Shown: one piece after another, positions 10,786-31,715 of the stretch
Position numbering within the stretch: position 1 is the stretch's first letter
How the letters are laid out: each line of letters opens with the position of its first letter
Assembly (NCBI GenBank): GCA_945873195.1
Contig: CAMCDA010000004.1
Coordinates: 1,923-65,922, forward strand
Length of the DNA stretch: 64,000 bases
Reading direction: 5' to 3'
From: Asaia bogorensis
Lineage (GTDB): Bacteria; Pseudomonadota; Alphaproteobacteria; Acetobacterales; Acetobacteraceae
Translations under genes and position numbers: made by a program
The notes under the pieces: model-generated
The model's database searches: none
Told to the model about the DNA's origin: nothing
The model's input: only the letters and a program-made list of their open reading frames with translations

Positions 10786-10807
10786 GATGATGCCTTCCCT
10801 TTGTTGA

Positions 10808-14504: not shown

Positions 14505-14774
14505 TTACGGCTGCACGCGGCTCGCGGTGCGGCGCTCCGGGATCACGATCTGCTGGGTGGAGAAGTCGCTGGAGGTGCGGAGCAATTCGTTGATCTGCGC
14601 TTCCTCCTTCGAAAGGTCGCGCATCGCCGGCGAGTCGTTGACACGATGGCTCCAGAACGCATCCGCATAAAACGTCTGATACCAGTCCTGCACCGCGTTG
14701 ACCGTGATATCAACCATCACGGTTCCCAGCAGCGCGCCGCCTGCGATCAAGGTCGTGACCGAGAATGGGCCCAT
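14505..14774 (-). CDS. Small hypothetical protein with an N-terminal hydrophobic helix; last gene of the RND operon
   Basis: Starts 14 nt after the RND stop; TLIAGGALLGTVMVDITV. Confidence 0.6.
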   Translation of the reverse strand: MGPFSVTTLIAGGALLGTVMVDITVNAVQDWYQTFYADAFWSHRVNDSPAMRDLSKEEAQINELLRTSSDFSTQQIVIPERRTASRVQP

Positions 14775-14788: not shown

Positions 14789-17700
14789 TCAGAAGGTTTC
14801 GTAAGCCAGCTTTTCGTTCGCCGCGATGACTTTACGCAAGGCTTTTTCGCCGAACAGTTGAAACAGCAACGGTGTTGTGAACGTATCCAATAGGGTAGAG
14901 CTGATCAATCCACCGAAAATTGCAACCGCAACGGGGTGCAAAATCTCCGTCCCGGCGCTGTCCGAGCTCCAGAGCAGCGGCGTCAACGCCAACCCTGCCG
15001 CCAGCGCGGTCATCAGAACCGGCATCAGCCGTTCCGCCGACCCGCGCATTACCAGGTCGCGACCCAGCGGCATACCTTCATGAAGGTGAAGGTTGATGAA
15101 GTGGCTGACCTTAAGCAGGGAATTCCGCACGGCCACGCCGGTCACCGCGATGAACCCGATCAGCGCCGCGAGGTCGAGGTCGAGCCCCGTGATCCATAGC
15201 GCCGCGACACTGCCGACCAGCGCCAGCGGGATGTTGCCCATGATGACCAGGCACAGCACGGCCGAACGGAACCGCTGGTGCAGCAGCATGAACATCAGGA
15301 ACAGCGCGACGGGGGACAGCAGGCCGAGCTTGACGCGGGCTTCCTCGCCCTGGCGGAAATCGCCGTCGAGTACGATGTGGTTCCCGGGCGGCAGCTTGGT
15401 CTTGGCGACGACCTCTCGGACCTTGGCGACGATCCCGGCCAGATCCGAGGTTCCATCCGAATTCGCCATCACCGCGATTCGCCGCTGCCCATCCTCATGC
15501 ATGATCCTGCTCGGCCCCACCGAGCTGGTGATGGTCGCGAACGACGACAGCGGCACCGGGCCGCCTGGCGTGTCGAAGCGCATCCGTTCCAGCGCCTGCG
15601 GATTGCGGTCTTCGTTCCGCAGCCGGATGGTGACATCGAACCGCCGGCCATTTTCAATCACCTGGGAGACAACCTGTCCGTTGGTCAGGGTACCGAGGCG
15701 GCCAATGATGTCGGCGGGAATGACCCCGAACAGGGCGGCGCGTTGGTAGTCGATGGAGATGCGCTGCTGCGGCACGAACGTCTGCTGCTCCACCGCCAGA
15801 TCGACCAGGCCGTGGATACGGCCCAGCTCCACCTTCAGCTTTTCCGCGATGATGCGGATCGTTGGCAGGTCGCGGCCGAACACCTTCAAAACGATATCGC
15901 CACGGACCATGTTGTCCTGCGATTGCATGCGTTCCAGGAGGAACTGCGTGACGTTGACCTCACCCGGGAAGATCGAGATGCGCCGGCGGACCTCGGCCAT
16001 CAGTTCCTTGAGCGAGCGTCCCTGGTCGAGCTTGATCTTCAGCGGCCATTCATTGTCGTTCACCGGATCGACGTCGGAATCCCCATCGTAGCGGCCGCTG
16101 CGCCGGGACATCGCCTTGACCTCGGGGATGTCCATCAGGAACTGCTCGGCGACATGGCCGATCCGGTAGGACTCGGCGATGGAGGTATCCGGCGCGAGCA
16201 GCAGCGTGACGTAGACATTCCCCTCATTCAGTTGCGGCAGGAACGACCGCGGTAGGAACGGCACCGAGAGCATTGAGACCGCGACGCACAGCCCGGCGAA
16301 AGCCAGCACGGGGCGCGGCCGGTCCAGCACCCAGCCCAGCGCTCGGCTGTTCAGGCGCTTCAGACGATGGACCAGCACGCCGCCGTGCTCCCGGTTCAGC
16401 GCCTTCATGTTCGGGATGAAATAGGAGCACAGCGCCGGCGTGACGGTGATCGACACGATCAGGCTGACGACGATCGACACCACAAAGGCGGTGGCCAGCG
16501 GCATGAACATGCGCCCGACCTGGCCCGGCATCGCCAGCAGGGGAATGAACACGATCAGCACCACGGCGGTCGCGTACAGAATGCCCGAGCGCACTTCCTG
16601 GGACGCGCGGGCGATCACGGCCATGGCGGGCTCCGGCCGTTCCCGCCGCCGGTTCTCGCCCAGGCGGCGCATGATGTTCTCGACGTCCACGACCGCGTCA
16701 TCGACCAGTACGCCAATGCCGATCGCGATCCCACCCAGGGTCATGGTGTTCAGCGACGTGCCCATCAAGTGGAACACGATCAGGCTACTGACCAGCGACA
16801 CCGGGATCGCGAGCAGGGAGATCACGGTCGGCTGTAGCGACCCCAGGAAGACGACCAGCACGATGGCGACGATGACCACGGCGTCGCGCAGCACCAACCC
16901 GACATTGCCGATCGCCTCCTTGATCATGTCGGCCTGGCTGAAGGAGATAAGGCCGAGCTTGATGGTGGGCGGCGCGCTGGTTTGGAGGTCGGCGAGGGCG
17001 GCTTCGATGCGATCGGTCACCTGGACCGTGTTCGCCTGGGGCTGCTTGACGATCGACAGATTGACGGACGGCTGGCCATTGAACGCGGCCTGTCCCTGGC
17101 GCACGGCCGGCGCGAAGGTGACCTCTCCGACCTGGCCCAGCAGCACCGGCACCCGATCGCGATAGGCCACGACGAGGGATCGCATGTCGTCCTGGCTGGT
17201 CGTGCGGCTGATGTTGCGCAATGCGTAGCTGGTGCCCTGCACATCGGCGACGCCGCCGCTCGTGTTGCTGGCAAACCGTTCGAGCGTCGTTTCCACATCG
17301 CTGAGCGTGACGCCGAAATACTGCATCAGGTCGAGGTTGGGCGTGAATTGATAGGTCCGAACCTGGCCGCCGATGGCGAAGACCTGCGAAACGCCCTCGA
17401 TCGCCAGCAGGCGGGGGCGCACCACCCAGTCCACGTACCCCCGCAGCGCCATCGGGCTTTCGCCGCCGATGACGCCCATGTGCATGATTAGCCCGGTTGC
17501 CGCCGACATCGGTGCCAGGTTTGGGATGACGCCATCGGGTAGTTGCGACCGCACCGACTGCATGCGTTCGGCGACGAACTGGCGGTTGCGGAAATTATCC
17601 GTGCCCCAGGCGAACACCACCTGGAAATAGGCGACCGAGGCGTTGGAACTGCTCCGCACGCTGGTGACGCCGGTCAGGCCGGTCAGCGCCTGCTCGATCG

Positions 17701-17902
17701 GCACGACGACAAGCTGCTCGACCTCCTCGGCCGTGAGCGTGCCGGATTCGGCGGTCAGCACGACGGATGGCGGGCGGGTTTCGGGCAGCAGGTCGATCGG
17801 CATGTCGCGCGCGATCAGGGTGCCCCAGACCAGCAGCACCGCGGTCACGATAAGGACCAGGACGCGATGGCGCAGGCTGGCCGAGACGATCGCCGCGAAC
17901 AT
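14789..17902 (-). CDS. CusA/CzcA (HME-type) RND efflux permease
   Basis: 1037 aa; MPIDLLPE, GIAIGIGVLVDDAVVDVEN, GFIAVTGVAVRN, PVLMTALAAGLALTPL. Confidence 0.93.
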   Translation of the reverse strand: MFAAIVSASLRHRVLVLIVTAVLLVWGTLIARDMPIDLLPETRPPSVVLTAESGTLTAEEVEQLVVVPIEQALTGLTGVTSVRSSSNASVAYFQVVFAWGTDNFRNRQFVAERMQSVRSQLPDGVIPNLAPMSAATGLIMHMGVIGGESPMALRGYVDWVVRPRLLAIEGVSQVFAIGGQVRTYQFTPNLDLMQYFGVTLSDVETTLERFASNTSGGVADVQGTSYALRNISRTTSQDDMRSLVVAYRDRVPVLLGQVGEVTFAPAVRQGQAAFNGQPSVNLSIVKQPQANTVQVTDRIEAALADLQTSAPPTIKLGLISFSQADMIKEAIGNVGLVLRDAVVIVAIVLVVFLGSLQPTVISLLAIPVSLVSSLIVFHLMGTSLNTMTLGGIAIGIGVLVDDAVVDVENIMRRLGENRRRERPEPAMAVIARASQEVRSGILYATAVVLIVFIPLLAMPGQVGRMFMPLATAFVVSIVVSLIVSITVTPALCSYFIPNMKALNREHGGVLVHRLKRLNSRALGWVLDRPRPVLAFAGLCVAVSMLSVPFLPRSFLPQLNEGNVYVTLLLAPDTSIAESYRIGHVAEQFLMDIPEVKAMSRRSGRYDGDSDVDPVNDNEWPLKIKLDQGRSLKELMAEVRRRISIFPGEVNVTQFLLERMQSQDNMVRGDIVLKVFGRDLPTIRIIAEKLKVELGRIHGLVDLAVEQQTFVPQQRISIDYQRAALFGVIPADIIGRLGTLTNGQVVSQVIENGRRFDVTIRLRNEDRNPQALERMRFDTPGGPVPLSSFATITSSVGPSRIMHEDGQRRIAVMANSDGTSDLAGIVAKVREVVAKTKLPPGNHIVLDGDFRQGEEARVKLGLLSPVALFLMFMLLHQRFRSAVLCLVIMGNIPLALVGSVAALWITGLDLDLAALIGFIAVTGVAVRNSLLKVSHFINLHLHEGMPLGRDLVMRGSAERLMPVLMTALAAGLALTPLLWSSDSAGTEILHPVAVAIFGGLISSTLLDTFTTPLLFQLFGEKALRKVIAANEKLAYETF

Positions 17903-18466
17903 CTAGATCGGCCGCAGCGCGGGCCGCTTCTGTCCGCGCCGGCGCACGATCATCGACCCGAGGAGGATGCCGATTCCGCCCGCCGCCAGGGCAATCAGGA
18001 CCTTGTCCCGGAACCCGCCGCCGTCGCCGGCGACCGCGCTTTCCGACGGGGGCGGATAGATGATCTCGGCTATCGCATCGCCCGTGCCGGCGGCCGCATT
18101 GACCGAGACCACGAAGGTATCCCGCAGCCGGCCATTCAGCGCGAAGGGGCCGACGAACAGGCCCTGGCTGACCTGGTTGAGCGTGACCGGCGTGCCCTCG
18201 GCCGTCGTGATGGTCAGCGTCGCGTCGTCGGCGGGGGCGTTGTTGTCCACCCGGTCGACGAAGGCGTGCAATTTGCCATCGGCCGCGATAAGCACGACCG
18301 CGACGCCGCCGATTTCCACCACCACGCGGGGGGCCACCGGGTTGCCGTCGTCATCATCGCCGGCGCGCGCGGGGGCGATGCCGAGCAGCAGCCCGAAGGC
18401 CAGGACGGCGGCGAACAGCCATACAGGAAGACAGCGCGTGCCCGACATTCTGGTTTCCGCCTTCAT
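17903..18466 (-). CDS. Exported accessory protein of the RND operon (signal peptide plus C-terminal TM)
   Basis: ATGA overlap with the MFP stop; TAG abuts the RND ATG; VLIAADGKLHAFVDRVDNNAP resembles N-terminal domains fused to some alphaproteobacterial MFPs. Confidence 0.72.
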   Translation of the reverse strand: MKAETRMSGTRCLPVWLFAAVLAFGLLLGIAPARAGDDDDGNPVAPRVVVEIGGVAVVLIAADGKLHAFVDRVDNNAPADDATLTITTAEGTPVTLNQVSQGLFVGPFALNGRLRDTFVVSVNAAAGTGDAIAEIIYPPPSESAVAGDGGGFRDKVLIALAAGGIGILLGSMIVRRRGQKRPALRPI

Positions 18467-19992
18467 TGCAGTTGCGCCATCAGGCGGGAGCCATTGATGA
18501 CGATGCGCGCGCCCGCGGCCACACCGTCCACCACCAGGATGGAGGTGCCGTCGATCACGCGGGTTCGCACCGGGTGCGGCACGAAGGTCTCGGCGGCGGT
18601 CTGTTCCCAGACTTCCTCGACGCCCGAACTGCCCTGGGTCACCGCGGACCGGTTCAGGAGGATGCCGCGCTGGCTCTGGCCGGTGTTGACGACGGTCACG
18701 CTGACCGGCCGGCCGACGCTCAGGCCGGCGGGCGGATTTTCGATCCGGTACATGATTGGCGTGGACTGCCGAGCAACCGAGAGGCCGGAGCCGACAAAGC
18801 GCAGGGTCAGGTTGATGCCTTCCGGGGTAGTGGCCGCGGCGACCGGCGTGCCGCGCGCGGCCTCGGCGATCGCGGGATTGGACGCGGTGGCCTCGATCCA
18901 CAGGCGGGTCGGATCGATGACCTCGAACATCACCTCTCCGGGCTGGACGATCCGGCCGTTGACGGCCGATGTCGTGGAGACGATCCCGTCGGTGAGCGCG
19001 CGCAGGGCTTCGCGCAATTCCAGCATCGGCAGCAGGGCATCGCGTTCGCGGCGGAGGCCGGACAGGCGCTGTTCGGCCTGGTAGATCTTGCCTTCGCGGA
19101 ACGGCACCCAGGTGAACTGGCGCAGGATTTCCAGCGCCTCGGTTTCCAGGCGGATGTCGGTGGTCAGGCGGGTGACATCGCGGCGGACCTGGCTGCGATC
19201 GACGACGCCGATGGATGGCGACACCCAGGCAAGCGTCTCGCCCTGCTTCACCGCCTGGCCCAGGGTCGGGAAGCCGGTATCGGGCGGTTCCAGCCGGCCG
19301 GGCACGCTGGGCTGCACCGTGCCGTGCAGCGACGGGTCGGGCACGATCCGGCCCGAGATCTGCCGGACATCCGGGACATCGATCACGCGGGCCTGCTCGG
19401 TGCGGACGTTGAACAGACGTTGCAGCGGTTTGGGCACGAAAAACGACCCGTCTTCCCGCCGGTTGCTGCGGTCGTAGACGAAATTGGCGATCAGGCCGGG
19501 ATCGACCTCATCCTGCGGGCCGATCGGCATGGTGGGGGAGGGCGGGATCGCCGGCTGCTCGGGCATCCGAGCGGCGGCGCGCAACGGTTCCATCACGGGC
19601 GGCGCGGACGCCGGCGTCGCGGCTGGCACGGGGCGTGGGCGAGGCGGCGGTTCGGCGGCGCGGGGCGGCAGGATCGGCGTGGAGTTGACCCCCAGCAGAT
19701 ACGACACCTCCCACAAGAACTGGCCTGTGCCGCCGGGGATATTGGCGATGCCGGTGGCGGTCCAGGCGATCGCGTCCAGCGTCGCGCCCACGGCGGAGCC
19801 CAGATAGGACCCGGTCGCGGCCGGTTTTGGCGGCGGCGGCGCGGGCTGGGCATGGGACCTCAGGGACGGATCTTCCTCCGGCACGCGGTCGGCGATGCTC
19901 CGGTCCTGCAAACCTTGCGCCGGCACGAGGCTGGTGGAGTAGGCGATCACCGCAACCGTCAGCGTGGCCAGGCGCCACGGCGCGCGCATCAT
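18463..19992 (-). CDS. RND periplasmic adaptor (MFP) with a long Pro-rich N-terminal extension
   Basis: ISGRIVPDP...VQPSVPGRL...LGQAVKQGETLA; LRALTDGIV...GRIVQPGEVMFEVIDPTRLWIEA. Confidence 0.9.
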   Translation of the reverse strand: MMRAPWRLATLTVAVIAYSTSLVPAQGLQDRSIADRVPEEDPSLRSHAQPAPPPPKPAATGSYLGSAVGATLDAIAWTATGIANIPGGTGQFLWEVSYLLGVNSTPILPPRAAEPPPRPRPVPAATPASAPPVMEPLRAAARMPEQPAIPPSPTMPIGPQDEVDPGLIANFVYDRSNRREDGSFFVPKPLQRLFNVRTEQARVIDVPDVRQISGRIVPDPSLHGTVQPSVPGRLEPPDTGFPTLGQAVKQGETLAWVSPSIGVVDRSQVRRDVTRLTTDIRLETEALEILRQFTWVPFREGKIYQAEQRLSGLRRERDALLPMLELREALRALTDGIVSTTSAVNGRIVQPGEVMFEVIDPTRLWIEATASNPAIAEAARGTPVAAATTPEGINLTLRFVGSGLSVARQSTPIMYRIENPPAGLSVGRPVSVTVVNTGQSQRGILLNRSAVTQGSSGVEEVWEQTAAETFVPHPVRTRVIDGTSILVVDGVAAGARIVINGSRLMAQLQ

Positions 19993-21086
19993 CGCGTTTC
20001 CGTCCCAGCTGTCTGTCGGGTCGCCTGGGCTTCGGTCACGGCATAGGCCGAGATGGCTTGCGCGGCGCGCGCGGCCTCGGTCCGTTCTCCCGCGCTTTTG
20101 ACCCAGGTTTCCGCCTGGCCGCGCCAGGGCGAATGGGTCAGCAGCGTCGCGACTTCAGCCATCCGCCCTTCGGCCGCCAGCAGCCGCAGCCGTTGCAGGA
20201 AGCTGGCCTGCGGATCATCGGCCCCGCCGAACAGCGCGCGCAGGCGGGACCAGCTTGATCCGTCCTGGCCGAGCGTGGCGGCGATGGATTGGTCGAGCGC
20301 CTCGAAGGCGATGGCGAGGTCGCGGATCGTGGCCACGCCTTCCGGCAGGTCGCGCAGCGTATCGACGGCCAGGGCGATCGGCTCGGGGTAGGGGCCGTTC
20401 AGGTCCATCAGCGCGACGCCCTCGCTCAGCGGCGACCCGGTATCGACATCGCGGCGCAGGCGGGTGGCGGCGGCAAGCAGGGCGGCGGCGCGCACCCGGG
20501 CGGCAAGCACCTGACCCGCGGCCTCGATCTGGGTCATGCGCTGGCCGGCGTCCTGCGCCGCGCGCGCGGCGCCCGCGAGCTCGGTGCGGTTTTCGCGCAC
20601 GGCCGAGCCGGTTTCGATCAGCCGCCGGTCGAGCTGGCGGATATCGAGGCGCAGCCGCAGCATCTCCGACTCGAGGCCGGCGACGCGGGGGATCAGGGCC
20701 GCGACGTCGCGGTCGGTCGGGTTTTCCGGGGTCAGGACCTCGGTCAGCTTGCCGGCGGCGTCAGTGCCCAGGACGGTTGGCGCGTGGGCGACCAGCACCG
20801 GGCGCAGCGACGGGGCGGCCAGCGCGATGCAGGCGGCGGCGAGCGCCACGGTCGCGAACAACCCGCTGGCCCAGGCGCCGCGCGCGCGCTGAGGGGGGGA
20901 GGGAACATCGGTCGCGGGATCGGGAACATCGGTCGCCAAGGGTCGCGCGTGGGTTGCAGGCGCGGGATCGTTATCGTTGCGAGACTCAGGCAGGGGGAGC
21001 GGCGGCGGTTCGGCCCGCGCGCGGTCGCCGCGATCCCGGATCAGAACGTTCAGCCCGCCCGGCAGTGCAACAGGTTCATCGGCCAC
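19989..21086 (-). CDS. Mitofilin/Mic60-like (COG4223-like) TM-coiled-coil protein, copy 1
   Basis: Pro-rich N-terminus, TM, heptad coiled coil, then LRRDVDTGSPL...EGVATIRDLAIAF...W...W..A..R..A pattern; ATGA overlap with the MFP. Confidence 0.65.
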   Translation of the reverse strand: MADEPVALPGGLNVLIRDRGDRARAEPPPLPLPESRNDNDPAPATHARPLATDVPDPATDVPSPPQRARGAWASGLFATVALAAACIALAAPSLRPVLVAHAPTVLGTDAAGKLTEVLTPENPTDRDVAALIPRVAGLESEMLRLRLDIRQLDRRLIETGSAVRENRTELAGAARAAQDAGQRMTQIEAAGQVLAARVRAAALLAAATRLRRDVDTGSPLSEGVALMDLNGPYPEPIALAVDTLRDLPEGVATIRDLAIAFEALDQSIAATLGQDGSSWSRLRALFGGADDPQASFLQRLRLLAAEGRMAEVATLLTHSPWRGQAETWVKSAGERTEAARAAQAISAYAVTEAQATRQTAGTETR

Positions 21087-21326
21087 GTTTGCGATCCATG
21101 TCAGGGAGGAGCGGCTTGGGTGGAACGCGGTTCAGGGTAGGGCGAGGTCGGTAACGCCACGCATTGAGTCCGCATATGCATGATCCTGCCGGGGCAGCCA
21201 TGTTTTCATGTATCAGGGTGACAGGCCGATCGGTTTCAGGCAACACTAAACATGCATACCGCCAATCAGTTTTACGTTGTGTTACAGTCGGAGAGTGTGT
21301 CCGGATGAAGCATCGGAGCGTGTGAG

Positions 21327-21734
21327 ATGTACGGCCAACCGCTCGGGATTCTTGTCCGCATGATGGCGGTCCTCATGCTCGTCGCCGCGACGTACAATCC
21401 CAGCGGATATTCCTGGTATCATTGGGTGGAACAGACGGGCACCGAGCACTGGATCGCGAAGCTTTTTACATTCTTTGTTTTGATTTCTGGATACATCGTC
21501 TGCGTCAACGCCACGATCCGCTCACTCGGCCTGATCCTGGGCATCCCGTTCGTGCTACTGATCGTGACCATGGTCTGGCTCGCCGCCGATCACGGCTGGA
21601 TCGATCTGTCCAACTGGCTGCACCGAACCCTGGTGATCCAGGGATCCCTGGTGCTGCTGCTGGGCACCGGAACGTCGTTTTCCATCATTCGCTACCGGCT
21701 CGCCGGACAAATGGATTCCCGCTCGCTGCAATGA
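21327..21734 (+). CDS. DUF6524-like membrane protein, copy 1
   Basis: LVAATYNPSGYSWYHWV followed by 3 TM helices (family recognised by motif, not searched). Confidence 0.7.
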   Translation: MYGQPLGILVRMMAVLMLVAATYNPSGYSWYHWVEQTGTEHWIAKLFTFFVLISGYIVCVNATIRSLGLILGIPFVLLIVTMVWLAADHGWIDLSNWLHRTLVIQGSLVLLLGTGTSFSIIRYRLAGQMDSRSLQ

Positions 21735-21787
21735 AGATGTATTTTTTACCCATACGTCATCTTGGAGCGTAACGAGATGGCATCCCC

Positions 21788-22186
21788 ATGAGCCCGGGTG
21801 GCCTCACCGCTCGGCTGCTCGCCTGTTTCGCCCTGGTGTTCGCCACCTGGAACCCGACCGGCGTGAATTTCATCGACTGGGTCACCGGCCCCGAGCCGCT
21901 CGCGCTCAAGGCGGTGGCGGCGGCGCTGCTCGTCTTGCTGCATACCCTGTTCGCCCGAATCACCTGGCTGTCCCTGGGACTGGAGGGCCTCGGGTTCCTG
22001 CTGGTGATGCTGTTCCTGGGCGTGTTCACGCTGTCGGAACTGGATGTGATCGACCTCAGCCGAGGGCGGACATGGGGGTATGTTTTCAATGCGGTGGCGG
22101 CGCTGACGCTGACAACCGGTGTCGCTTGGTCGGTGATGAAGCGGCGCGTGACGGGCCAGTCCAACTACCTCAATCCACCACCCTGA
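21788..22186 (+). CDS. DUF6524-like membrane protein, copy 2
   Basis: LVFATWNPTGVNFIDWV with the same TM layout as the upstream paralogue. Confidence 0.7.
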   Translation: MSPGGLTARLLACFALVFATWNPTGVNFIDWVTGPEPLALKAVAAALLVLLHTLFARITWLSLGLEGLGFLLVMLFLGVFTLSELDVIDLSRGRTWGYVFNAVAALTLTTGVAWSVMKRRVTGQSNYLNPPP

Positions 22187-22838
22187 TGATGTCGGCCTGC
22201 GGTTCATCCCGCTGCCGCCGCCCCGACAGGGCCGAGAGCATCCTGGGCAGCAACGGCGGCTCATTGTGGCGGTAGTCCTGGATCAGCAGCATCGCCACCA
22301 GGATGACCCAGAAATTGAGCTGGTTGATCGACCACAATGTCAGCGTCGCGAGATAGATGACGCCGTGAAAACTTGTGATGAAGACAAGGACCTCGGTGAT
22401 CAGCAGGGCGCGCGCGCGGCGGCCGCGGCGCTGTGCCAGTGAGGTGACGATTCGCAGCGCCCAGACCGCTAGCGCCAGCCCGCACCACGCCAGCAGGTTG
22501 GCGCGTTCGTCTTGCCCGGCGATGGCGGTGGCCAATTCCAGGGCGGCGCGCGCTTCGTAGCGCAGGGAGCGTTCCAGGAATTCAGTCAGGGACAGGTCCC
22601 ACACGCCGTTGGGCGTGACGATCGCGTCCCAGGTCAGGGCCATGGGGGGGATCAGCAAAGGCAGGGCGGCCAGGCCGATCATGCCGCCGCTGACGACGGT
22701 GGCGTCCCCGGCGCTGCTGCCGCCCCGGATGACGCGGGAGAATTGCACGATCCAGAGCCAAAGCAGCAGCGGCGCGCCCACGATGATGGCGCGGAACAGA
22801 TAGAACGCGGCCTCACCCAGGAAATCGAGCAGGTCCAT
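22170..22838 (-). CDS. Hypothetical polytopic membrane protein
   Basis: About 4-5 hydrophobic helices. Confidence 0.7.
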   Translation of the reverse strand: MDLLDFLGEAAFYLFRAIIVGAPLLLWLWIVQFSRVIRGGSSAGDATVVSGGMIGLAALPLLIPPMALTWDAIVTPNGVWDLSLTEFLERSLRYEARAALELATAIAGQDERANLLAWCGLALAVWALRIVTSLAQRRGRRARALLITEVLVFITSFHGVIYLATLTLWSINQLNFWVILVAMLLIQDYRHNEPPLLPRMLSALSGRRQRDEPQADIIRVVD

Positions 22839-22864
22839 CCGGCGTCACGCCACGCGCGGGGGGA

Positions 22865-23311
22865 TCAGGTCTCGATCGATCGATACCACCGGCGGGACCA
22901 GAACAGCCCGGCGCGCTTGGGGCGCCAGCCGTTGTCAGCCATCACGCGCTTGAGCTGCCGCCGAGCCTCGGCTTCCGTGATGGTGTTGGCGGAGAAATCG
23001 CGGAGGACCTGGGCCGTGCTGTTGAACTGCGCGCGAGACACGGAGCCGCGGCGGCCGGCGTGACGGGCCAGAACCTGCTGGATGCGGCGGGCGGTTTCGG
23101 TTTCGAACGTATAGCCAAGATCCTCGGCCACGCCGCGCAGGATGCCGCGGGCTTCGTCGAGGGGCAGGCCATAGCGCGTGACCCCTTCCTCCAGCAGCCG
23201 CTGTTCCTGGGCGCGGTCGATGAACTTGCTTTGCAGGCCTGACAGCTTCACCAGGTCGGCAAAGCGCCGGGCGGGGTCGTCGGCACCGCGCCTGACCATG
23301 TCATCTGCCAT
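22865..23311 (-). CDS. Hypothetical soluble helical protein
   Basis: FIDRAQEQRLLEEGVTRYGL...; basic aromatic C-tail (GLFWSRRWYRSI); start 23311 or 23323. Confidence 0.7.
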   Translation of the reverse strand: MADDMVRRGADDPARRFADLVKLSGLQSKFIDRAQEQRLLEEGVTRYGLPLDEARGILRGVAEDLGYTFETETARRIQQVLARHAGRRGSVSRAQFNSTAQVLRDFSANTITEAEARRQLKRVMADNGWRPKRAGLFWSRRWYRSIET

Positions 23312-23442
23312 TGTCAAGATCACATCCCCGCATCTGGTGAAGGCGGGGGTTATAGGTGGCCGGTCACGGGGCTGTAAAGCGCGCGCTGGGATGAAGTTGG
23401 CATGATGGTGTGGGCAAACGTGTTAATTCGTGCGGAAGTAGC

Positions 23443-23459
23443 CATAATGTGACATTATG
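23443..23459. promoter_or_regulatory. Perfect 8-1-8 inverted repeat, candidate operator in a divergent promoter
   Basis: CATAATGT-G-ACATTATG in an AT-rich intergenic region. Confidence 0.6.
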
Positions 23460-23603
23460 CCCCGATGGGTGGTATGTTACCGAAAAATTTCTCGCTTCGC
23501 GGGGCCTGTGTCATCTGATAGAGGCAACCACGCCCTGGTCGTTGCAATCAGGACGGCCGAACGGGGTGTTGGCTACCCTGGATTTTAATGGATTTCATCC
23601 GAC

Positions 23604-24779
23604 GTGTCCGTTGCACAGACCTGGAAAACGCTCCGTATCTTCGTCAATCGCCGCCTGTCCGCGCGGCGTGGGCGCATCAATCCCTGGCGCGATTGGGCCA
23701 CAAGCGCGGTGGTCCTCGCGATCGGCATCGGTGTCGGGGTGTCGTGTCTGCCGGGACACCCGACGCAGGGCCCCTCGGCCGCCACGCTGATCGATCCGCA
23801 GCCCAATGGCGGCGGCATCGCCCCCGCCGTCTTCGCGCTGCGTGACAGCGGCGCGGCGGTCCGTTTCGCGAATGCCGAGGCCCGGCCGAACGGCCAGATC
23901 CTTGTCGGCTTCTACAACGCCCTCGACCCGCTGCTCGCCACCGCCACCGAACCGGTTCTGCTTCCCGCCGATGCTCGGCTGCTGTGGCTGCTGGCATCAC
24001 CGGGGGAGCGTCAGTCGATCCGCGACCGCGCGGCGGCCCTGGTCGTGGCGCTGTCTTCGGGCGGGCGCGATATCGTCACGTCGCCGGAGTTCGCCGATCA
24101 CTACCGTGACCGTTTCCTGGAGGTGTTTCAGGTTGCCGCCCGTTCGGCCTGGGTGGTGACGCAGGAAAGCGGCGCCTGGCGCGCCTTGCTGCGCGGGCTG
24201 GAACCGGCGATGCGCGACCTCGGTGACCGCGACATCCGCCCGGTGGTCGAACGGCATTTTCGCGTGGTCCCCGGCCGGATGCTGCGCGCCAACGCCTTCG
24301 CGATGCTCGATCCCTTCACCGACCGACCCTGGAACATGACCCCGGTGGAGGACGCGCTGCGGTCCGCGCTGCTTGAACTGCGGGATCGGGAGGTGCCGGA
24401 GCGGATGGTCGCGCATCTGATGGCCTCCCCCCAGGCCGCGACCTTCCTGCGGCTGTATCAGGATGAGTTGGTGCGCCAGCTCGCCCATGATGGCGCGCTG
24501 CAAGGGCTGCTGGCCGAGATGGCCTTTGATGAGCGGTTTCGTCCCTATGCCAACGGCATAGTCGATCGCGCCAACGACCTGGCCCGCTTCGCGCCGCGTC
24601 TGCTGGTCAGCCTGCGCGGCAGCAAGGACCTGAACCTGGTGGCCGCCACCGTCATCCGGGCGACCATCGCCGGGCGGGGGGACCGTGTCGTTGTGTTCAT
24701 GAGCCGATCGCAACGGGATGAGCTGGCGGCGCTGGATCGGTACGCGGTGCAGCCGCTTGAGAGGAAGGGGCGCTCGTGA
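23604..24779 (+). CDS. Hypothetical single-TM/exported helical protein
   Basis: TM SAVVLAIGIGVGVSC; GTGA overlap with the ABC-MlaE gene. Confidence 0.72.
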   Translation: MSVAQTWKTLRIFVNRRLSARRGRINPWRDWATSAVVLAIGIGVGVSCLPGHPTQGPSAATLIDPQPNGGGIAPAVFALRDSGAAVRFANAEARPNGQILVGFYNALDPLLATATEPVLLPADARLLWLLASPGERQSIRDRAAALVVALSSGGRDIVTSPEFADHYRDRFLEVFQVAARSAWVVTQESGAWRALLRGLEPAMRDLGDRDIRPVVERHFRVVPGRMLRANAFAMLDPFTDRPWNMTPVEDALRSALLELRDREVPERMVAHLMASPQAATFLRLYQDELVRQLAHDGALQGLLAEMAFDERFRPYANGIVDRANDLARFAPRLLVSLRGSKDLNLVAATVIRATIAGRGDRVVVFMSRSQRDELAALDRYAVQPLERKGRS

Positions 24780-26323
24780 GCGACAGCCGGATGGCGGCGC
24801 GCGACGGGCTTGTCGCGACGGCGGCGCGCGACGGGCTTGTCGCGACCGGTCTTTCGATCACCCGCCCGGATGGCATTCCCATCCTGCGCGATACCGAGCT
24901 GCGGATCGGCGCGTCCGAGGTCGTGCTGCTGGTCGGCCCCAGCGGCTGCGGCAAATCGACCCTGCTGATGCTGTTGGGCGGGTTGCTGGATCGCGGCAAT
25001 GGCTGGCAGGTATCGGGGCAATTGTCGTGCGGCGACCTGCGGATCGACCTGGCCGAGGAACAGGCCGGCGTCGGCGGCGTGGTGTTCCAGAGCCATGCGC
25101 TGTTCGACGAACTGGATGCCGAGGCCAATCTGCGGATCGCGCGCGACCACGCGGCGGCGAATGTCGCGCCGTCGCTGGCCGCCGCCATGCTGCCGATGCT
25201 GGAGGATATCGACCCGCACCAGGCCGTCAGCGCCAGCAGCGGCGGGCAACGCCAGCGTTTGGCCATCGCGCGCACCGTGCTGACCGACCAACCGGTGCTG
25301 CTGTTCGATGAGCCGAATTCGGGGTTGGACATCATCTCCTCCCGCCGGCTGGTGGAACTGATCCGCGGCCTGTGCCGCACCATGGGCAAGCCGGCGCTGA
25401 TCGCGGTGCATCACGCCTCCGAACTGCTGCCGGTGGCCGATCGCGTGCTGGTGATGGACCCAATCCGCGCCACCTTGACCGAGGTTGCGCCGCGGATCGA
25501 GGCGTTGGAGGCCGGCCTCACCATCGCCACGCGGGCCGATCCGACCGAGGAACGGCCCCGTTCTCGGGGGCGCTGGCGGCTGGGCTCCTCGGCGGCGCCG
25601 AGGAACACGCGGCTGTATTGGTTCACCCATTACGTGCTGGGCTACATGTGGCTGCTCTGCGCGTCGCCGATCATGTTGATGTATATCGCGGCTGGGGCCT
25701 GCATTACCGGGTTTGTCACGATCTGGTTCGGGTTCAACTACTATTCCTATGGTGGATTGCTGAAATCACTGCTGCATGATGAGACCTTGGTGGGGCTGGG
25801 AACGGTGCAGGCGCGGGTGGCGCTGCCCTTGATCACGACGATTCTGTTCGTCGCGCGCAACAGCGCGGTGATCGCGGCGGATGTCGGTAACCGGGCGCTG
25901 ACCGCGCAGTTCCAGGCGATGGACAACCTGGGCATTCCAGGCCGGCTTTATGTGTTTTCGGGGATCATCATCAGCATGGGCGTTGGCTCGGTCGTGCTGA
26001 TCGTGCTGGCGGTGCTGCTGGGCGCCTGGGCCTCGCAGGAAACATGGATGGTACAGTTCCCCAACCAATATCGGGAGTTGTTTCGCAGCCTGTTCTTCCG
26101 TAATGTTATCTCGCCATCCGGTTGGCCGTCCTCGGCGATGGGTTGGGTGGTGGCCAAGGCGGCGATCAGTGGATTGCTGGCCTCGATCACGTCGATCATC
26201 ATCGCGCTGGGGCCCAAATCATCCAGCCTGGCGGTCAGCCGGTCGGTGGCCAACGCGATTGTCGTGGGCGTGATCGTGGCGCTTTTGGTGCATGCGGTGA
26301 TTTCGGCGCTGACAGCGGTCTGA
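24776..26323 (+). CDS. Fused ABC ATPase plus MlaE-like permease
   Basis: GPSGCGKST, SGGQRQRLAIAR, LLFDEPNSGLD; C-terminal LPLITTILFVARNSAVIAADVG...QFQAMDNLGI and AVSRSVANAIV match the MlaE pattern. Confidence 0.82.
   Translation: MSDSRMAARDGLVATAARDGLVATGLSITRPDGIPILRDTELRIGASEVVLLVGPSGCGKSTLLMLLGGLLDRGNGWQVSGQLSCGDLRIDLAEEQAGVGGVVFQSHALFDELDAEANLRIARDHAAANVAPSLAAAMLPMLEDIDPHQAVSASSGGQRQRLAIARTVLTDQPVLLFDEPNSGLDIISSRRLVELIRGLCRTMGKPALIAVHHASELLPVADRVLVMDPIRATLTEVAPRIEALEAGLTIATRADPTEERPRSRGRWRLGSSAAPRNTRLYWFTHYVLGYMWLLCASPIMLMYIAAGACITGFVTIWFGFNYYSYGGLLKSLLHDETLVGLGTVQARVALPLITTILFVARNSAVIAADVGNRALTAQFQAMDNLGIPGRLYVFSGIIISMGVGSVVLIVLAVLLGAWASQETWMVQFPNQYRELFRSLFFRNVISPSGWPSSAMGWVVAKAAISGLLASITSIIIALGPKSSSLAVSRSVANAIVVGVIVALLVHAVISALTAV
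24793..24846 (+). repeat. Perfect 27-bp tandem duplication (AARDGLVAT x2), in frame
   Basis: ggcggcgcgcgacgggcttgtcgcgac at 24793 and 24820. Confidence 0.95.
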
Positions 26324-26378
26324 CCGGACCCTACGATACTTTCACGGCGCGTATATCGGTTCTTGAGGAGTGACAGGC

Positions 26379-27161
26379 ATGGATCGGGATGACCAGGCAC
26401 ATGAGCGCGCGGCGACGATGCGATCGATGAAAATGCTGGCCGGGGCGGCGTTGATCGTCTCGCTGACCGGGCCGCTTTGGGTACCGAACATCCTCGCCAC
26501 TCTGAATTTCCGTTCCTCCGCCGATATCGCCGCCGAACGGAACCGGGACGACATCGTCCGGCTGGAGCAAGGCTCCGTCGGGTCCGAGCAGCGACTGAAG
26601 GCGGCCGAGGCCGCGGTGGCCAAGCTGCGGGAGGACCTGGGCCGCATGGAACAGCGGATGGCGGCGATGCGCGACGCGCTGGCCGCCGGCGCCGCGGCCG
26701 ATCTCGCGGCGGCGCTGCGCTCCGATGGCGGGTTCATGGCGGAACTGGCGGCGTTGCGCGCGGTTGCGACTCCCGCCCCCGATCTGACCGACATGCTGGC
26801 CATGATCACCCCCTTCGCGGAAACCGGGGTGCCGGGCGCGCGTGAAATCCGCCAGCGCTTCCTGCGGGAGATGGCGGGCGCGGGTTCGGCGCAGGGCGGT
26901 TCGCCGTTCGCCTGGCTTCGCCGGACGGTGCTGCTGGCGCCAGATCCGGTGGCTCAGGACGTGAACCCGCATTTGCTGGAAGCCGAGACCCTGCTGCGTG
27001 ACGACGACCTGCTGGGTGCGATGGCCGCGGCCCGCCGGATCGAGGCGCCGCGCCCCGACTGGCTGGGGGCCTGGCTCGCGGATGCCCAGGCGCGGTCCGC
27101 GGCGGATGCGCTATTGCCCCGGCTGGATCGCTGGACGGCCGTCGCCGCGCCCAAGCCATGA
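26379..27161 (+). CDS. Mitofilin/Mic60-like protein, copy 2
   Basis: GAGGAG RBS; TM; coiled coil; LAAALRSDGGFMAELAAL...FAETGVP...LLRDDDLLGAM...WLADAQARSAAD. Confidence 0.75.
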   Translation: MDRDDQAHERAATMRSMKMLAGAALIVSLTGPLWVPNILATLNFRSSADIAAERNRDDIVRLEQGSVGSEQRLKAAEAAVAKLREDLGRMEQRMAAMRDALAAGAAADLAAALRSDGGFMAELAALRAVATPAPDLTDMLAMITPFAETGVPGAREIRQRFLREMAGAGSAQGGSPFAWLRRTVLLAPDPVAQDVNPHLLEAETLLRDDDLLGAMAAARRIEAPRPDWLGAWLADAQARSAADALLPRLDRWTAVAAPKP

Positions 27162-27451
27162 GGCCGCGCCGGACGTTGGCCGGCCTGGCGCTGGGGGTGT
27201 CGCTGTTGGCCGGCGGGCCGGTGTCGGCACAGGTCGTTGTGGAACGCGACGTCATCGTCGTGCGCCAGGGCGGCGTGACCGAGGCGATGATCTCGGCCTG
27301 CGCCGGTGGCGCGGCGATCGGGGCGGTGATCGTCTGGGGCAGCGGGACGGGAGCGGTGTTGCCGACCGCCGGGTTGTTCTGTGGGCTGTCGGTGGCGGCG
27401 ACCATTTCGGCCTCGGTGGCGACTTATGCGTGGCGCTCGCTGCCTTGGTGA
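27158..27451 (+). CDS. Small signal-peptide / Gly-zipper membrane protein (97 aa)
   Basis: ATGA overlap; SACAGGAAIGAVIVWG...AGLFCG. Confidence 0.72.
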   Translation: MRPRRTLAGLALGVSLLAGGPVSAQVVVERDVIVVRQGGVTEAMISACAGGAAIGAVIVWGSGTGAVLPTAGLFCGLSVAATISASVATYAWRSLPW

Positions 27452-27529
27452 ATTGCGCGCGACCGTGACCGGGGCCTACGATGCGCCGAGCGTTTGCATA
27501 AGCATCGGCGGGCGGGGAAGGGGTTGTCC

Positions 27530-28216
27530 ATGCACACCGTGATGTTGGCCAAGCAGAAGGGCGGCGTGGGCGCGAGTACCATCGCGCGGGAGATCGGGGT
27601 GCTGGCCGCGCGCAACGGGCAGCGGGTTGTGTTCATCGACCTCGATCCGCAGGCGACTCTGTCGAAATGGTGGAACCGGCGCACGGCTGGCGCGAACGGC
27701 ACGCCGAACCCGGCGCTGGCTGCGGTGAAGCCAGACCAGTTGCTGACCGTGCTGGGGCAGTTGGCCGCCAGCGGCGGGGTGGATCTGGTGGTGATCGACG
27801 TGCCGCCCTCGATCCACAGCTTCATCCGGCGGGTGATGGACGCGGTCGATTTCGTGCTGGTGCCGGTGCGCCCGACCTCCGACGATTTCGAGGCCTTGCC
27901 GGAAATCGTTGAGATGATTGAGCAAGCGGGCCGGCGCTATGCCTTCGTCGTGACCCAGGCGCCGACGGGCCGGCGGATCCGCGCGGTGGATGAGGCGATT
28001 CCGATCCTGGCGCGCCAGGGCCGGGTGGCGGGCGTGCTGCGGTTCCGTTCGGCGTTCCCGGCGGCTGCCTCGGCGGCGCAGGTGACGACCGAGTTTGAAA
28101 CGACTGGCAAGGCCGCCGCCGAAATTCGGGAGCTTTGGGCTTTCGTGAAGGCTGAACTGCGGAAGATTGATCGGGCGGCCGCGGCGGCGGCGCCAGAACT
28201 GGCGAAGGCGTCCTGA
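27530..28216 (+). CDS. ParA-family ATPase with atypical Walker A (KGGVGAST)
   Basis: KQKGGVGASTIA, FIDLDPQA, VIDVPPS, VLVPVRPT; GGGGAAGGGG RBS. Confidence 0.88.
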   Translation: MHTVMLAKQKGGVGASTIAREIGVLAARNGQRVVFIDLDPQATLSKWWNRRTAGANGTPNPALAAVKPDQLLTVLGQLAASGGVDLVVIDVPPSIHSFIRRVMDAVDFVLVPVRPTSDDFEALPEIVEMIEQAGRRYAFVVTQAPTGRRIRAVDEAIPILARQGRVAGVLRFRSAFPAAASAAQVTTEFETTGKAAAEIRELWAFVKAELRKIDRAAAAAAPELAKAS

Positions 28217-28239
28217 GCGGCGGATGAGGAAAATTCAGG

Positions 28240-29670
28240 ATGGCCCGTAAATCGACGGTGAAGCTACCGGACGTGTTCGCCAAGCCCGGTCAGGCGCCGT
28301 CGCGCGGCACGCCGATCGAGGCCCTGCCGCGGGAGGGGGAACCGGAGCCGTCGGCGGCTGAACCCGTGCCTGCTTCGGCGGTTGCGGAGCCGGGTCCCGT
28401 GGCCAGCGCGGCGCCGGTCACCGGTGATGATTCACCGGCGTCCTGGGCGCTGGCATCTCGGCCGGCCCTGGTTGCCGGCGGGCCTGATCGCGGCCAGCCG
28501 CCCGTTGTCCCGCCGCGTCATGTCGTCGTGCCGGAAGCTGCCACCCCCGACGTGCCGGCATCGGAGTCCCCCCTGCCGAACCCTGTGAGCGGTTCGGCGG
28601 CCTCGGCTGATGCCGTGCCGACTCCGCCGGAAGCCGCCCCGGTTGCCGAGGCCTCCCCCGTTGGAGAGACCCCAAGCGCGCTGCCCCCCATTATCGCGGC
28701 ACCTACCGCCGCCCCGCTGGCGAGGCCCGTGGTTCCCCCGGCGGTCGTCGCTCCGCCTGTCCCGCCAGCGCCCACATCGACGGTTCCATCGGCGGTCCCC
28801 CCGACGGTCCCCCTGGCGGCCCCATCAACGCCCCCACCGTCCATGTCCCCGCCCGCAACGCCCTCGCGTCCGGCGCACGCCGAACCGCCGCGCCCCGCCG
28901 TCACCCTGCCATCTCCGCGCGGGCCAGCCTGGACCATCGCCATGCTCGCCCTCGGGGTCAGCCTGACGACCCCGTTCTGGTATGACGGCGCCCTCCGCCT
29001 CCTCGGCCTCACCACCACGGTCGGCCAGGCCCAGCAGGAAGACGCGCTCGCCATCTCGCGGCAGGAGCGCAAGCTCCGCGACGTCGAGCAGCGCCTGACC
29101 ACGACCGCGACCCAATTGACCAGGGCACAGGCCGACCTGACGCAGGCCGTCCGCAAGCAGGAGGAAACCGCGGCCTGGACCCGCGTCATGATCCTGGCCC
29201 GCCTCGGGGAAGCCTTGCGGCGCGGCACACCCTTCGGGCCCGAACTCGCGATGGCGCGCGGGGCGAGGGCCGCGACCGGTGACCTGACGCCGTTGCTGGA
29301 CCGGTTCGCGCCCTACGCGCCGATCGGCGTGCCGACCACCCAGGACCTCGGTCAGGATTTCCGCCGGGTCACCGACCCTGTGCTGCGGCCGGCCCGTGGG
29401 CTCAATCCCCTGGCCTGGGCCGCGACGGTCATCGCCTGGACCCCCTTCGGCCGGCCCGCGCCCGAGACCGACCCAGGCCGTCTGGCCCTGCGAGAGGCCG
29501 CGAGCCGCGTGCGCGACGGCGCCGTCACCGATGCGGCGACGATGCTGCGCCCCGTCACCGGCCCGGTCGCGGACCTGATGGCCGGCTGGCTCGCCGATGC
29601 CGACGCCCGGGCGGCGGCGGATGCGTTCAATCAGCGCATCGACGCCCTCCTGCGCGCCGGCCCCCGCTGA
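28240..29670 (+). CDS. Mitofilin/Mic60-like protein, copy 3, with a ~220-aa Pro/Ala-rich N-terminal region
   Basis: TM (WTIAMLALGVSLTTPFW), coiled coil, LGEALRRGTPFGPEL...GVPTTQDL...F...WLADADARAAAD. Confidence 0.78.
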   Translation: MARKSTVKLPDVFAKPGQAPSRGTPIEALPREGEPEPSAAEPVPASAVAEPGPVASAAPVTGDDSPASWALASRPALVAGGPDRGQPPVVPPRHVVVPEAATPDVPASESPLPNPVSGSAASADAVPTPPEAAPVAEASPVGETPSALPPIIAAPTAAPLARPVVPPAVVAPPVPPAPTSTVPSAVPPTVPLAAPSTPPPSMSPPATPSRPAHAEPPRPAVTLPSPRGPAWTIAMLALGVSLTTPFWYDGALRLLGLTTTVGQAQQEDALAISRQERKLRDVEQRLTTTATQLTRAQADLTQAVRKQEETAAWTRVMILARLGEALRRGTPFGPELAMARGARAATGDLTPLLDRFAPYAPIGVPTTQDLGQDFRRVTDPVLRPARGLNPLAWAATVIAWTPFGRPAPETDPGRLALREAASRVRDGAVTDAATMLRPVTGPVADLMAGWLADADARAAADAFNQRIDALLRAGPR

Positions 29671-29703: not shown

Positions 29704-31715
29704 TCAGCGCGCCTCGGGGCCGATATCGGGGAAGCTGGCCGGCAGGAGGGCCGCCCGAGCGCCCCCCGCCCCCGCGCCGGCCCAGCCGATCTCATTTGCA
29801 TAGGCGATCATCGGCTTGATCACGGCATGGGCGTTGGCCAGCGTGAAGCTCTGCGCCGCATTGCCCGTCACCACCCAGGTCGTCGCGACCGTGTCCAGGT
29901 AGGCGGCGACGCGATAGGTGCCGACCTTCACCAGCGTCCGGCTCCAGAGCGACCAGCCTTGATGTTCCGGCTGCAACGCCGAGTCCTCGGCCGCCCGCGC
30001 CAGGCGATCATGGGTCTCGGCGTCGATCGCCCCGGCATCGCGGAGGCGATCAACCGGCGCGCGGGCCTGGCGAAGCAGCAGCCGGCGCGCGGTGTCGGCC
30101 GTATCCGGTGCCGGCAGCGCCGCGAGGCTCCCGGTCAGGGTCTCGGGCAATCGTCCCCGCGCGCCGAGTTCCAGCGGTTCCCGCAGCAAGCTGCTCCAGG
30201 TGACGATGGTGGCGGGATCGTCGGTGGAGTCGGGGAAATAATACCGCGCGTCCAGGAAGTTCTCCCGCGTCCTGGTCCGCCCGGTTGCCTCCAGCATGAT
30301 CGGCGGCACGACCACGCCCTCGGTCCGCAGCCGATCCCGCGCGGCGGCCCATAGCGGCTCGCCGCCGGGCTCGTCCCGCGGGATGACCCGCTTGACATAG
30401 GCGCAATACCCGTCGCGAGGCGTATCGAACGCGACCTGCACGGAAAGCAGGTCGGTGCGCCCGCATTCAGCCGGGGAGCCGATGATATTGGCCGTCGGCG
30501 CGCCATTGGCCCGCGCGATCACCAGCCCCCGCAGCGCGCCGGCCTCGATCCGCCCGAACACCGCGCCGGCCTGTTGCGGCGTGTCCTCCCGCGCCAGTTC
30601 CCGCCAGGTCCCGGGCGGCATCGGGATTTGCTTGCCGGCGACGACGGGAGTCGGTGCCGCGGCGATGCCCGGTGTGCCCATGGCCGGTGTGCCCATGCCC
30701 GGTGCGCCCATGCCCGGCGCATCCGAGGCCGGCGGCCCTGACCTGCCCGCCAGGGGGCCGGACAGGTTGATGATCGGCGTGGTGGGGGGCGTCTCCCACA
30801 CCAGTTCATTGACCATGAACACCGCGCTGTGCGTGACCATATTCCAGGTCTGCACCCAGGTGCCGGTGACCACGCTGCCAGTGACATAGCTGGCCAGGAC
30901 CAAGCCGATGGCGGTGTTCATCACGCGATAGCCGGCCAGCCGATACAAGCTCCGGGTCAGCGTGGTGGGCTCCTCGGCGTGCTCGTCTGCCCCATCCGCC
31001 GCGAACAGCAGGACCGGCATGGGCATTCTGGCATCGGGCGCGACCGGCGCGCGCATGGCGGCCAGCGTGGCGCGCCGAGCGGTCTGTGCCCAGTCGGAAA
31101 GGCGGCGGAGGGTCGCGGCGTGGGCGGTGTCGAGGCCCGCCGGACCCTCTGCCCAGGCCGCCGGGTCCGGTGAGGACGGGGACACGCCGAGGCGCATGTC
31201 GATCATGTCGCGCCGGTCGGAGACCCGGAACCCCGCGACAAGTGCCCAGGGCGGCAGCGTGCCTACGGCTTCGGCCGGCAAGGCGGGCAGCAGCGTGCCG
31301 ACGCGGTGCGGCCCGCGCGCGAAGGACACGAAGGCACAGCCCTCATGCAGGTCGCGCGATTCCGAGATCTGGGTAAAGAGCGTGCCCTCACAGGATGGCG
31401 ACGTCCCCCATCCGTCGCGGGCCGGCAGGGCATTGGTCTGGACCAGCAGGAAGGCGCGGTCGCGGGGTCGGGGCGGACCAGCAGCACGCCCGCGGTCACG
31501 CTGAGCAGGGTCCCGTTCGCGGCTTTCGCCGACCCGTGGCCGCTGGCCGCGATGCGCCAGGGGCCTTCGGGCAGGGGTATGGTCTTGCCGGCCAGGGTCA
31601 GACGCCCTGTGACGGTATCCCCGACAACGGGTGCATCGGCGGCCAAGGCGGGGCCGGCAACCATGGCGAGTAGCAGGGCGAACCATGGCACCAGAGCGAT
31701 GAGTTTGCGCGTCAT
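29704..31715 (-). pseudogene. Exported/membrane protein with two tandem [unknown Cys domain + DUF2061-like] units, interrupted by a 1-nt frameshift near 31465
   Basis: The signal peptide and TIPLPEGPWR are in one frame (ORF 31263..31751); the continuation DRAFLLVQTN...C...CAFV is in the other (ORF 29704..31686); RSLYRLAGYRV...NELVW and RTLVKVGTYRV...NEIGW are DUF2061-like. Confidence 0.7.
30665..30720 (-). repeat. 15-bp x ~3.7 tandem repeat encoding a Met/Gly/Pro linker (PGMGAPGMGTPAMGTPG)
   Basis: atg(c/g)ccggtg(t/c)gccc units at 30665, 30680, 30695 and 30710. Confidence 0.85.

Follow-up and report, generated by a model that had tools for sequence, protein, structure and literature searches.

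We analysed a 64,000 nt stretch of the genome of Asaia bogorensis (Acetobacteraceae; here the host), namely positions 1923 to 65922 of contig C4, which we call the window and in whose coordinates positions are given unless another contig is named. An earlier note on this DNA had described three genes in it as Mic60/mitofilin-like paralogues outside the usual heme-biosynthesis locus, each coupled to a different module. The three genes, termed A (19989-21086, minus strand, 365 aa), B (26379-27161, plus strand, 260 aa, or 263 aa if read from a GTG at 26370) and C (28240-29670, plus strand, 476 aa), were all present as open reading frames (ORFs) on these strands and together span 9.7 kb. A is the first gene of a minus-strand RND operon that continues with a periplasmic adaptor (membrane fusion protein, MFP), an exported accessory protein, the RND transporter and an 89-aa ORF. 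Onward from A lie two DUF6524 genes (plus strand), p152 and p222 (minus strand), a plus-strand series of p391, an ABC-MlaE fusion, B, p97, a ParA-type gene and directly after it C, and finally a minus-strand gene for a DUF2061 protein.

Canonical Mic60, which is near-universal, faces the periplasm, bends membranes and binds BamA, and a TolC-family protein is bound by its partner Orf52 (bioRxiv 10.1101/2022.06.14.496148). The canonical gene of the host was found on a contig other than C4, at C18:3859-5574, in a hemC-hemD-mic60-orf52 ('hemY') locus, so that the placing of A, B and C outside the heme-biosynthesis locus was correct. This canonical copy itself scored 26.3 bits on the Pfam Mitofilin model PF09731, below the gathering cut-off of 27.4, and the Pfam model is therefore weak for this lineage.

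B and C were homologous by direct comparison (BLASTP E = 2e-12) and by hhalign of their family profiles (99.6% probability, E = 4e-24). BLASTP of A against B or C was not significant, and A was joined to the others only by family profiles (A-C 87%, E = 3.7e-6 over the C-terminal domain; A-B 7%). We then compared each family with a canonical profile from the same bacterial family, made from the Mic60 C-termini of 22 genomes of Acetobacteraceae. Its alignments were collinear, with values of 93.7% (E = 1.9e-7, 159 columns) for the C family, 85.7% (E = 5.5e-6) for the B family and 40.9% (E = 2.8e-4) for the A family. The scores were 57 for C, 44 for B and 35 for A, compared with 14 ± 2.5 (maximum 20) for column-shuffled controls and 14-21 for reversed ones. 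The profile similarity is thus far above chance, and the collinear alignments, over 150-200 columns, include the invariant Trp and the GVP motif. When a hidden Markov model (HMM) of the canonical C-terminus was run over the 35,283 six-frame ORFs of the host, the canonical copy ranked first, C second (E = 0.0018), B eighth and A 24th.

Searches outside the host connected the B and C families with canonical proteins. A combined B+C profile gave 3,757 matches at E ≤ 1e-3 among 1.84 billion representative proteins, and those of 400-800 aa aligned at their extreme C-terminus (E from 1e-20 to 1e-27). All 10 of the long matches that were tested were positive for PF09731 over the same region, with 51-98 bits. 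B alone as a query found long proteins in other alphaproteobacterial families (E from 1e-7 to 1e-13); 10 of 11 of these were flanked by hemD and/or orf52, which identifies them as canonical Mic60s. We also observed that B was closer to these canonical Mic60s of other families (35-39% identity) than to the copy of its own host (BLASTP E = 0.23).

A broad Mitofilin HMM was built from 70 canonical-type proteins, selected without A or the host canonical copy, and the test is therefore not circular for A. Exactly four of the host ORFs were significant with this model: C (2e-26), B (3e-23), the canonical copy (5e-18) and A (8.6e-6), with the next-best ORF at E = 0.21. By hhalign the corresponding profile matched B with 99.4% probability, C with 99.5% and A with 97.0% (for A, E = 8e-11 over 184 columns). 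A profile that mixed B, C and canonical bacterial sequences matched the mitofilin domain of PDB entry 7PV1, a Mic60 mitofilin-Mic19 fusion, with E = 7.5e-7. The link of the A/B/C family to eukaryotic Mic60 is accordingly a transitive one, drawn through bacterial sequences.

By these comparisons A, B and C are divergent members of the Mic60 (Mitofilin-domain) family, additional to the hemD-linked copy, and the homology is firm at the profile level. The B+C profile, the single-sequence matches of B and the broad Mitofilin HMM together bore out the homology that the earlier note had claimed for all three. Because the three genes lie on contig C4, off the hem locus on C18, and because BLAST found no Orf52 homologue among the cluster proteins, they are, judged by sequence and gene position, paralogues and not orthologues of the housekeeping Mic60. 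In a tree of the C-terminal domain, B, C and about 33 B/C-like representatives formed one clade (Shimodaira-Hasegawa-like approximate likelihood ratio test support 99) apart from the canonical proteins, and this clade fell into two parts, C-type (support 97) and B-type. At 50% identity the B/C-like clade comprises about 60 clusters. A formed a long branch (0.90) in an unsupported position (44) beside the canonical copies of Acetobacteraceae. On this tree B and C are sister subfamilies and A is a separate long branch, which speaks against a single recent triplication. The phylogeny against hemD-linked copies, which the earlier note had suggested, thus separated the B/C clade from canonical Mic60 but did not make A, B and C one recent duplication.

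The three proteins have a common layout, as had been claimed: a variable N-terminus, a single hydrophobic helix, a long helix and a helical C-terminal domain. The N-terminus measures about 75 aa in A, about 20 aa in B and about 225 aa, rich in Pro and Ala, in C. The transmembrane (TM) helix lies at residues ~76-94 in A and ~231-247 in C, and ends in SLTGPLW in B, SLTTPFW in C and ALAAPSLRP in A. The C-terminal domains of all three carry the pattern GVP/GVA...F...W...W..A.AR. In an AlphaFold2 model of full-length B, which was all-helical (predicted local distance difference test score, pLDDT, 78.5), residues 47-117 form one helix, and the model of the C domain reached a pLDDT of 91.9 and a predicted template modelling score of 0.83. 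The elements of Mic60-type architecture (N-terminal TM helix, central coiled coil, terminal domain) were found in A, B and C, the coiled coil as a putative element that agrees with the long helix of the AlphaFold2 models and with the coiled-coil matches in profile searches of the PDB. A, B and C are predicted to be single-pass inner-membrane proteins with the N-terminus in the cytoplasm and the long helix and Mitofilin domain in the periplasm, as in canonical Mic60. The B-family alignment starts at MDRDDQ, which makes the ATG at 26379, the start given in the earlier note, likelier than the GTG at 26370.

Each of the three genes stands in a module of its own. The MFP gene (18463-19992, minus strand; Pfam HlyD_3 and HlyD_D23, with NCBIfam RND_mfp under its cut-off) encodes 509 aa that include a long extension at the N-terminus. 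It invariably comes after the A-type gene, and the stop of A and the start of the MFP overlap in ATGA. The stop of the MFP overlaps, again in ATGA, with the exported accessory gene (17903-18466, minus strand, 187 aa), whose product has a signal peptide and a C-terminal TM helix and is kept in relatives; a longer, 332-aa reading of the same frame (17903-18901), which includes the 187-aa ORF, had no Pfam match. The TAG stop of the accessory gene abuts the ATG of the inner-membrane transporter (14789-17902, minus strand, 1037 aa; ACR_tran 726 bits), which appears CusA/CzcA-like, although below the family cut-off (TIGR00914, 643 against 701). The 89-aa ORF (14505-14774, minus strand) closes the operon 14 nt after the RND stop, has GGAG upstream and is conserved in genomes G234 and G253. 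No outer-membrane factor gene was found in the cluster by Pfam and NCBIfam scans of its proteins. The RND and MFP components are those of tripartite RND pumps, which differ in having an outer-membrane factor.

The B module begins with p391 (23604-24779, plus strand), which has an N-terminal TM helix and a domain of ~330 aa without a Pfam or NCBIfam family match, and whose stop overlaps the next start in GTGA. That gene (24776-26323, plus strand) encodes an ABC ATPase fused to an MlaE-type permease in a single chain of 515 aa (PF00005 E = 5e-22; PF02405 MlaE E = 1.6e-9). The MlaD/MCE family had no match in any scanned cluster protein, and the three-part set of MlaF, MlaE and MlaD is therefore incomplete here: compared with MlaFEDB, the ABC ATPase and MlaE are held in common, but they are fused and MlaD was not found. 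In the RND and Mla modules alike, the place where one might expect a bridging part is taken by a single-pass periplasmic protein of Mic60-like type. The start of p97 (27158-27451, plus strand), a small exported or membrane protein conserved in four relatives and wherever B occurs, overlaps the stop of B in ATGA. Its N-terminus is signal-like, and its conserved, glycine-rich hairpin reads CAGGAxIGA...GxG...TAGLFCGLSVAA. As a Mic10 or glycine-zipper protein p97 was rejected, with no Pfam match even at E ≤ 10, and its hairpin, coupled to B, may recall Mic10 by analogy only.

The ATPase gene before C (27530-28216, plus strand) belongs to the ParA family (NF041546 ParA_partition, 127 bits against a cut-off of 180; Pfam CbiA, AAA_31 and MipZ). 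Its Walker A motif (27557-27580) reads KGGVGAST, in which Ala takes the place of the P-loop Lys while the signature Lys remains, and does not fit the deviant Walker A pattern KGGxxK[ST] with both lysines. The form KGG[V/A]GAS was present in 5 of 5 ParA orthologues paired with C-type genes, from three genera and with 70-91% identity, so the substitution looks like a maintained variant and not decay. C-type proteins start with a basic peptide conserved across genera, MARKPxxxLPDVFAKPGxAPxRGTPIE(A/D)LP (window 28240-28330), which is separated from the TM helix by a hypervariable Pro/Ala-rich linker of 100-200 aa. In ParA partners, short basic N-terminal peptides dock ParA. By this analogy we infer that the peptide of C faces the cytoplasm and is a candidate for docking ParA. 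The arrangement resembles ParA-ParB, ParF-ParG and McdA-McdB in that a ParA gene precedes a partner with a short basic N-terminal peptide and a disordered linker. C differs from those adaptors as a membrane protein with a periplasmic Mitofilin domain in place of a DNA- or cargo-binding cytoplasmic partner, and its ParA differs by the Lys-to-Ala change found in all orthologues.

The cluster is rare, occurring in 5 of 251 species genomes and 3 of 143 genera of Acetobacteraceae. The block recurs in genomes G117, G148, G234 and G253 (three genera), on metagenome contigs L025/L026, L028 and L057, in a named Acetobacteraceae metagenome-assembled genome (L061) and on contig L062; the collection of named genomes gave a single relative, Acetobacteraceae bacterium UBA6159. 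Both A-MFP-accessory-RND and p391-ABC/MlaE-B were kept in G234, G117, G253, L025, L028, L057, L061 and L062, and A-type and B-type genes stood together in every full copy of the cluster seen. The p391-ABC/MlaE-B triad was also found, alone, in a genome of another alphaproteobacterial family, G326. ParA-C adjoins the block in the window, in L028, G234 and G148 and on the P0057 contig, and behaves as a semi-independent pair that travels together whether linked to the cluster or not. The synteny holds in different genera, and for B in different families, and it upheld the claim that each paralogue is coupled to a different module. A link with phototrophy was rejected: reaction-centre genes were absent from the host, G253 and G117 and present in G176, which gave no B/C-type match.

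Because A, B and C are homologous with canonical Mic60, we propose that they probably serve as periplasmic scaffolds or contact parts anchored in the inner membrane, three divergent Mic60 members in one accessory envelope cluster, each dedicated to one machine (RND, ABC-MlaE or ParA). The paralogues would oligomerise through the helical region, and the Mitofilin domain would bind or bend the membrane and contact the outer membrane, as canonical Mic60 does with BamA. A and B may supply a periplasm-spanning or outer-membrane docking part that is absent from the RND/MFP and ABC-MlaE systems. The variant ParA would dock on the basic N-terminal peptide that C carries on a long, flexible linker in the cytoplasm, and a cytoplasmic ParA could thereby position or space envelope sites through C.

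A more ambitious version, in which the three paralogues, one of them with the Mic10-like p97, form a MICOS-like machine of inner-outer contact sites for lipid and RND traffic that ParA places through the C tail, we regard as rather unlikely. If true, it would be the first ParA system that uses a transmembrane adaptor of the Mic60 family to position a structure of the periplasm or membrane, and it would parallel, in bacteria, what mitochondrial MICOS does at contact sites and in lipid traffic. For a hetero-oligomer of A, B and C in a MICOS-like complex, a possibility raised in the earlier note, the only support is their co-occurrence. Eukaryotic MICOS (Mic60, Mic10 and Mic19; 7PV1) shares Mitofilin ancestry with A, B and C through the mixed profile only, and differs in that the cluster has no Mic19-like CHCH protein and p97 has no Mic10 family match.

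Several results weigh against the scaffold proposal or against parts of it. PF09731, which the earlier note had named as a check, gave no match for A, B or C even at E ≤ 10, and scans of the three with Pfam and NCBIfam returned just spurious sub-threshold coiled-coil matches. The family HMMs of A, B and C did not retrieve the canonical copy from the host genome, and the B+C-only and A-only profiles, run against PDB sequences, did not reach 7PV1 and gave generic coiled-coil matches only. The structural comparison that had also been suggested yielded a high-confidence model of the C domain but no Mic60: Foldseek against the PDB gave a best E of 0.09 for full-length B and 0.54 for the C domain. 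As the solved Mic60 pieces are short fusions and the evidence from sequence is strong, we do not read this outcome as a refutation. A hydrophobic-moment scan, itself indecisive, showed no clear amphipathic helix of the lipid-binding site 1 (LBS1) type in A, B or C. On the side of ParA, the Lys-to-Ala change may mean that the ATPase cannot cycle ATP as positioning models require. ParA-C is unlinked from the block in L027, where it stands beside rho, and in G117, where it is on a separate contig, and G253 yielded no second B/C-type gene; for these reasons A, B and C may not act as one complex.

The failure of Pfam, NCBIfam and Foldseek to match the three proteins directly would also be expected if unrelated Ala/Arg-rich coiled-coil membrane proteins mimicked the Mitofilin domain by composition, since high-GC, Ala-rich sequences inflate weak scores. 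Such chance resemblance is highly improbable when shuffled and reversed profiles scored 14-21 against the observed 35-57, when only 4 of 35,283 ORFs were significant with the Mitofilin HMM, when the alignments ran collinearly over 150-200 columns with the Trp and the GVP motif, and when the matches of the B+C profile were PF09731-positive and those of B linked to hemD or orf52. With common ancestry accepted, the separability of the modules (ParA-C stands next to rho in L027, is on a different contig in G117 and was not found in G253, and G326 has the B module by itself) suits a more modest reading, in which A and B are private periplasmic accessories and C a membrane-anchor accessory, with Mic60 ancestry kept but no membrane or contact-site action, no complex and no MICOS-like function. 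The long branch of A apart from B and C, and the failure of the A family HMM to find B and C in the host genome, point the same way. We hold such independent adaptors to be doubtful, given that A-type and B-type genes co-occur in all full copies of the cluster seen and that all three proteins retain the layout of TM helix, long helix and Mitofilin domain, which suggests that an ancestral working mode was kept.

A further reading is that the cluster builds or maintains an intracytoplasmic compartment, with the Mic60 paralogues shaping its neck, RND and ABC/MlaE loading metal or lipid cargo, and ParA-C spacing the compartments. ParA-type ATPases space carboxysomes and other cargo, and a ParA-type ATPase is present here together with many small membrane proteins (two DUF6524, DUF2061, p222 and p97) and an RND pump that lacks an outer-membrane factor; the Magnetospirillum magnetosome island, with its Mic60 and Orf52 paralogues, offers a precedent. 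We judge this improbable, in that the cluster has no marker of known compartments, no recognisable cytoskeletal or coat-like gene and no correlation with phototrophy and its membranes, and the lone p391-ABC/MlaE-B in G326 fits a transporter accessory better than an organelle. The scaffold reading, with each paralogue dedicated to one machine, is the one that we prefer to these alternatives.

Like canonical alphaproteobacterial Mic60 (R. sphaeroides, R. palustris), A, B and C have a TM anchor, a helical or coiled-coil middle and a C-terminal Mitofilin domain. They differ from it in lacking hem linkage and an orf52 neighbour, in falling below Pfam detection and in being tied to transporters and ParA; the coiled-coil region of B is also shorter, and C has a long cytoplasmic extension with a conserved peptide. 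Whereas canonical Mic60 is near-universal, the cluster was seen in only the five species noted above. The magnetosome island of Magnetospirillum has paralogues of Mic60 and Orf52, whose loss alters the size and number of magnetosomes (bioRxiv 10.1101/2022.06.14.496148). These copies, by their description, resemble A, B and C as extra Mic60s off the hem locus in an accessory, membrane-related alphaproteobacterial cluster. Here, in contrast, gene order and content are different, magnetosome genes are absent, and there are three Mic60-type copies, with no Orf52 paralogue by BLAST and with RND, ABC-MlaE and ParA as partners.

Extra Mic60 copies off the hem locus were thus already known, and the coupling to RND, ABC-MlaE and ParA is the new part; in the literature that we searched, no Mitofilin subfamilies tied to such modules were described. 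The Mic60 family has diversified here, giving three subfamilies that escape current domain models. More generally, bacterial Mitofilin proteins are under-detected by PF09731, with the host canonical copy below the cut-off and some 3,700 representatives matching the new profile. The role of Mic60 in alphaproteobacteria without intracytoplasmic membranes bears on the origin of mitochondrial cristae, and the cluster offers links, open to direct tests, from scaffolds of the Mic60 type to envelope or lipid transport and to positioning in space. Contact sites and lipid traffic are themes also ascribed to mitochondrial MICOS.

Among the other genes of the cluster, the two tandem DUF6524 genes (21327-22186, plus strand) encode small membrane proteins of 135 and 132 aa (PF20134 E = 6e-32 and 7e-28). 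The pair was found in all copies of the cluster, and no paper mentioning DUF6524 was found in the literature that we searched. The multi-TM protein p222 (22170-22838, minus strand) and the small soluble protein p152 (22865-23323, minus strand) had no Pfam or NCBIfam match, and p152 is the best conserved protein of the cluster, with 54-84% identity in relatives compared with 36-67% for A. In the variant clusters of L061 and L062, a TPR protein of ~380 aa (L061:5213-6361, L062:484-1620) lies upstream of the p391-like gene, and the host has homologues of it, 36-48% identical, at C62:9100-10293, C87:9245-10390 and C283:4257-5402. This TPR protein was rejected as an Orf52 paralogue, having no BLAST similarity to host Orf52.

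The gene that follows C (29704-31686, minus strand) encodes a 660-aa protein with a C-terminal DUF2061 membrane hairpin (PF09834 E = 4e-6). A second large protein with such a hairpin lies at 11880-13259, so that the cluster has one of the two on either side. In G234, G148, G253 and L056, homologues go along with the cluster or with ParA-C; a homologue of the 660-aa protein adjoins the pair in L056, and another sits inside the cluster region in G253. The genes that flank the cluster are ordinary metabolic genes. With such flanks, and with no integrase or transposase seen, an origin from a mobile element or plasmid was rejected for this patchily distributed cluster. In L027 (6749-12477), ParA-C is flanked by an acyl-CoA dehydrogenase gene and, on the opposite side, by rho and a metallophosphoesterase gene, and the same Pfam families as in these flanks occur in the window at 9610-11989, on the far side of the cluster. 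By tblastn the acyl-CoA dehydrogenases of the window and L027 were 32% identical and the metallophosphoesterase had no match in L027. The comparison of these flanks hints at rearrangement or insertion beside an older ParA-C locus.

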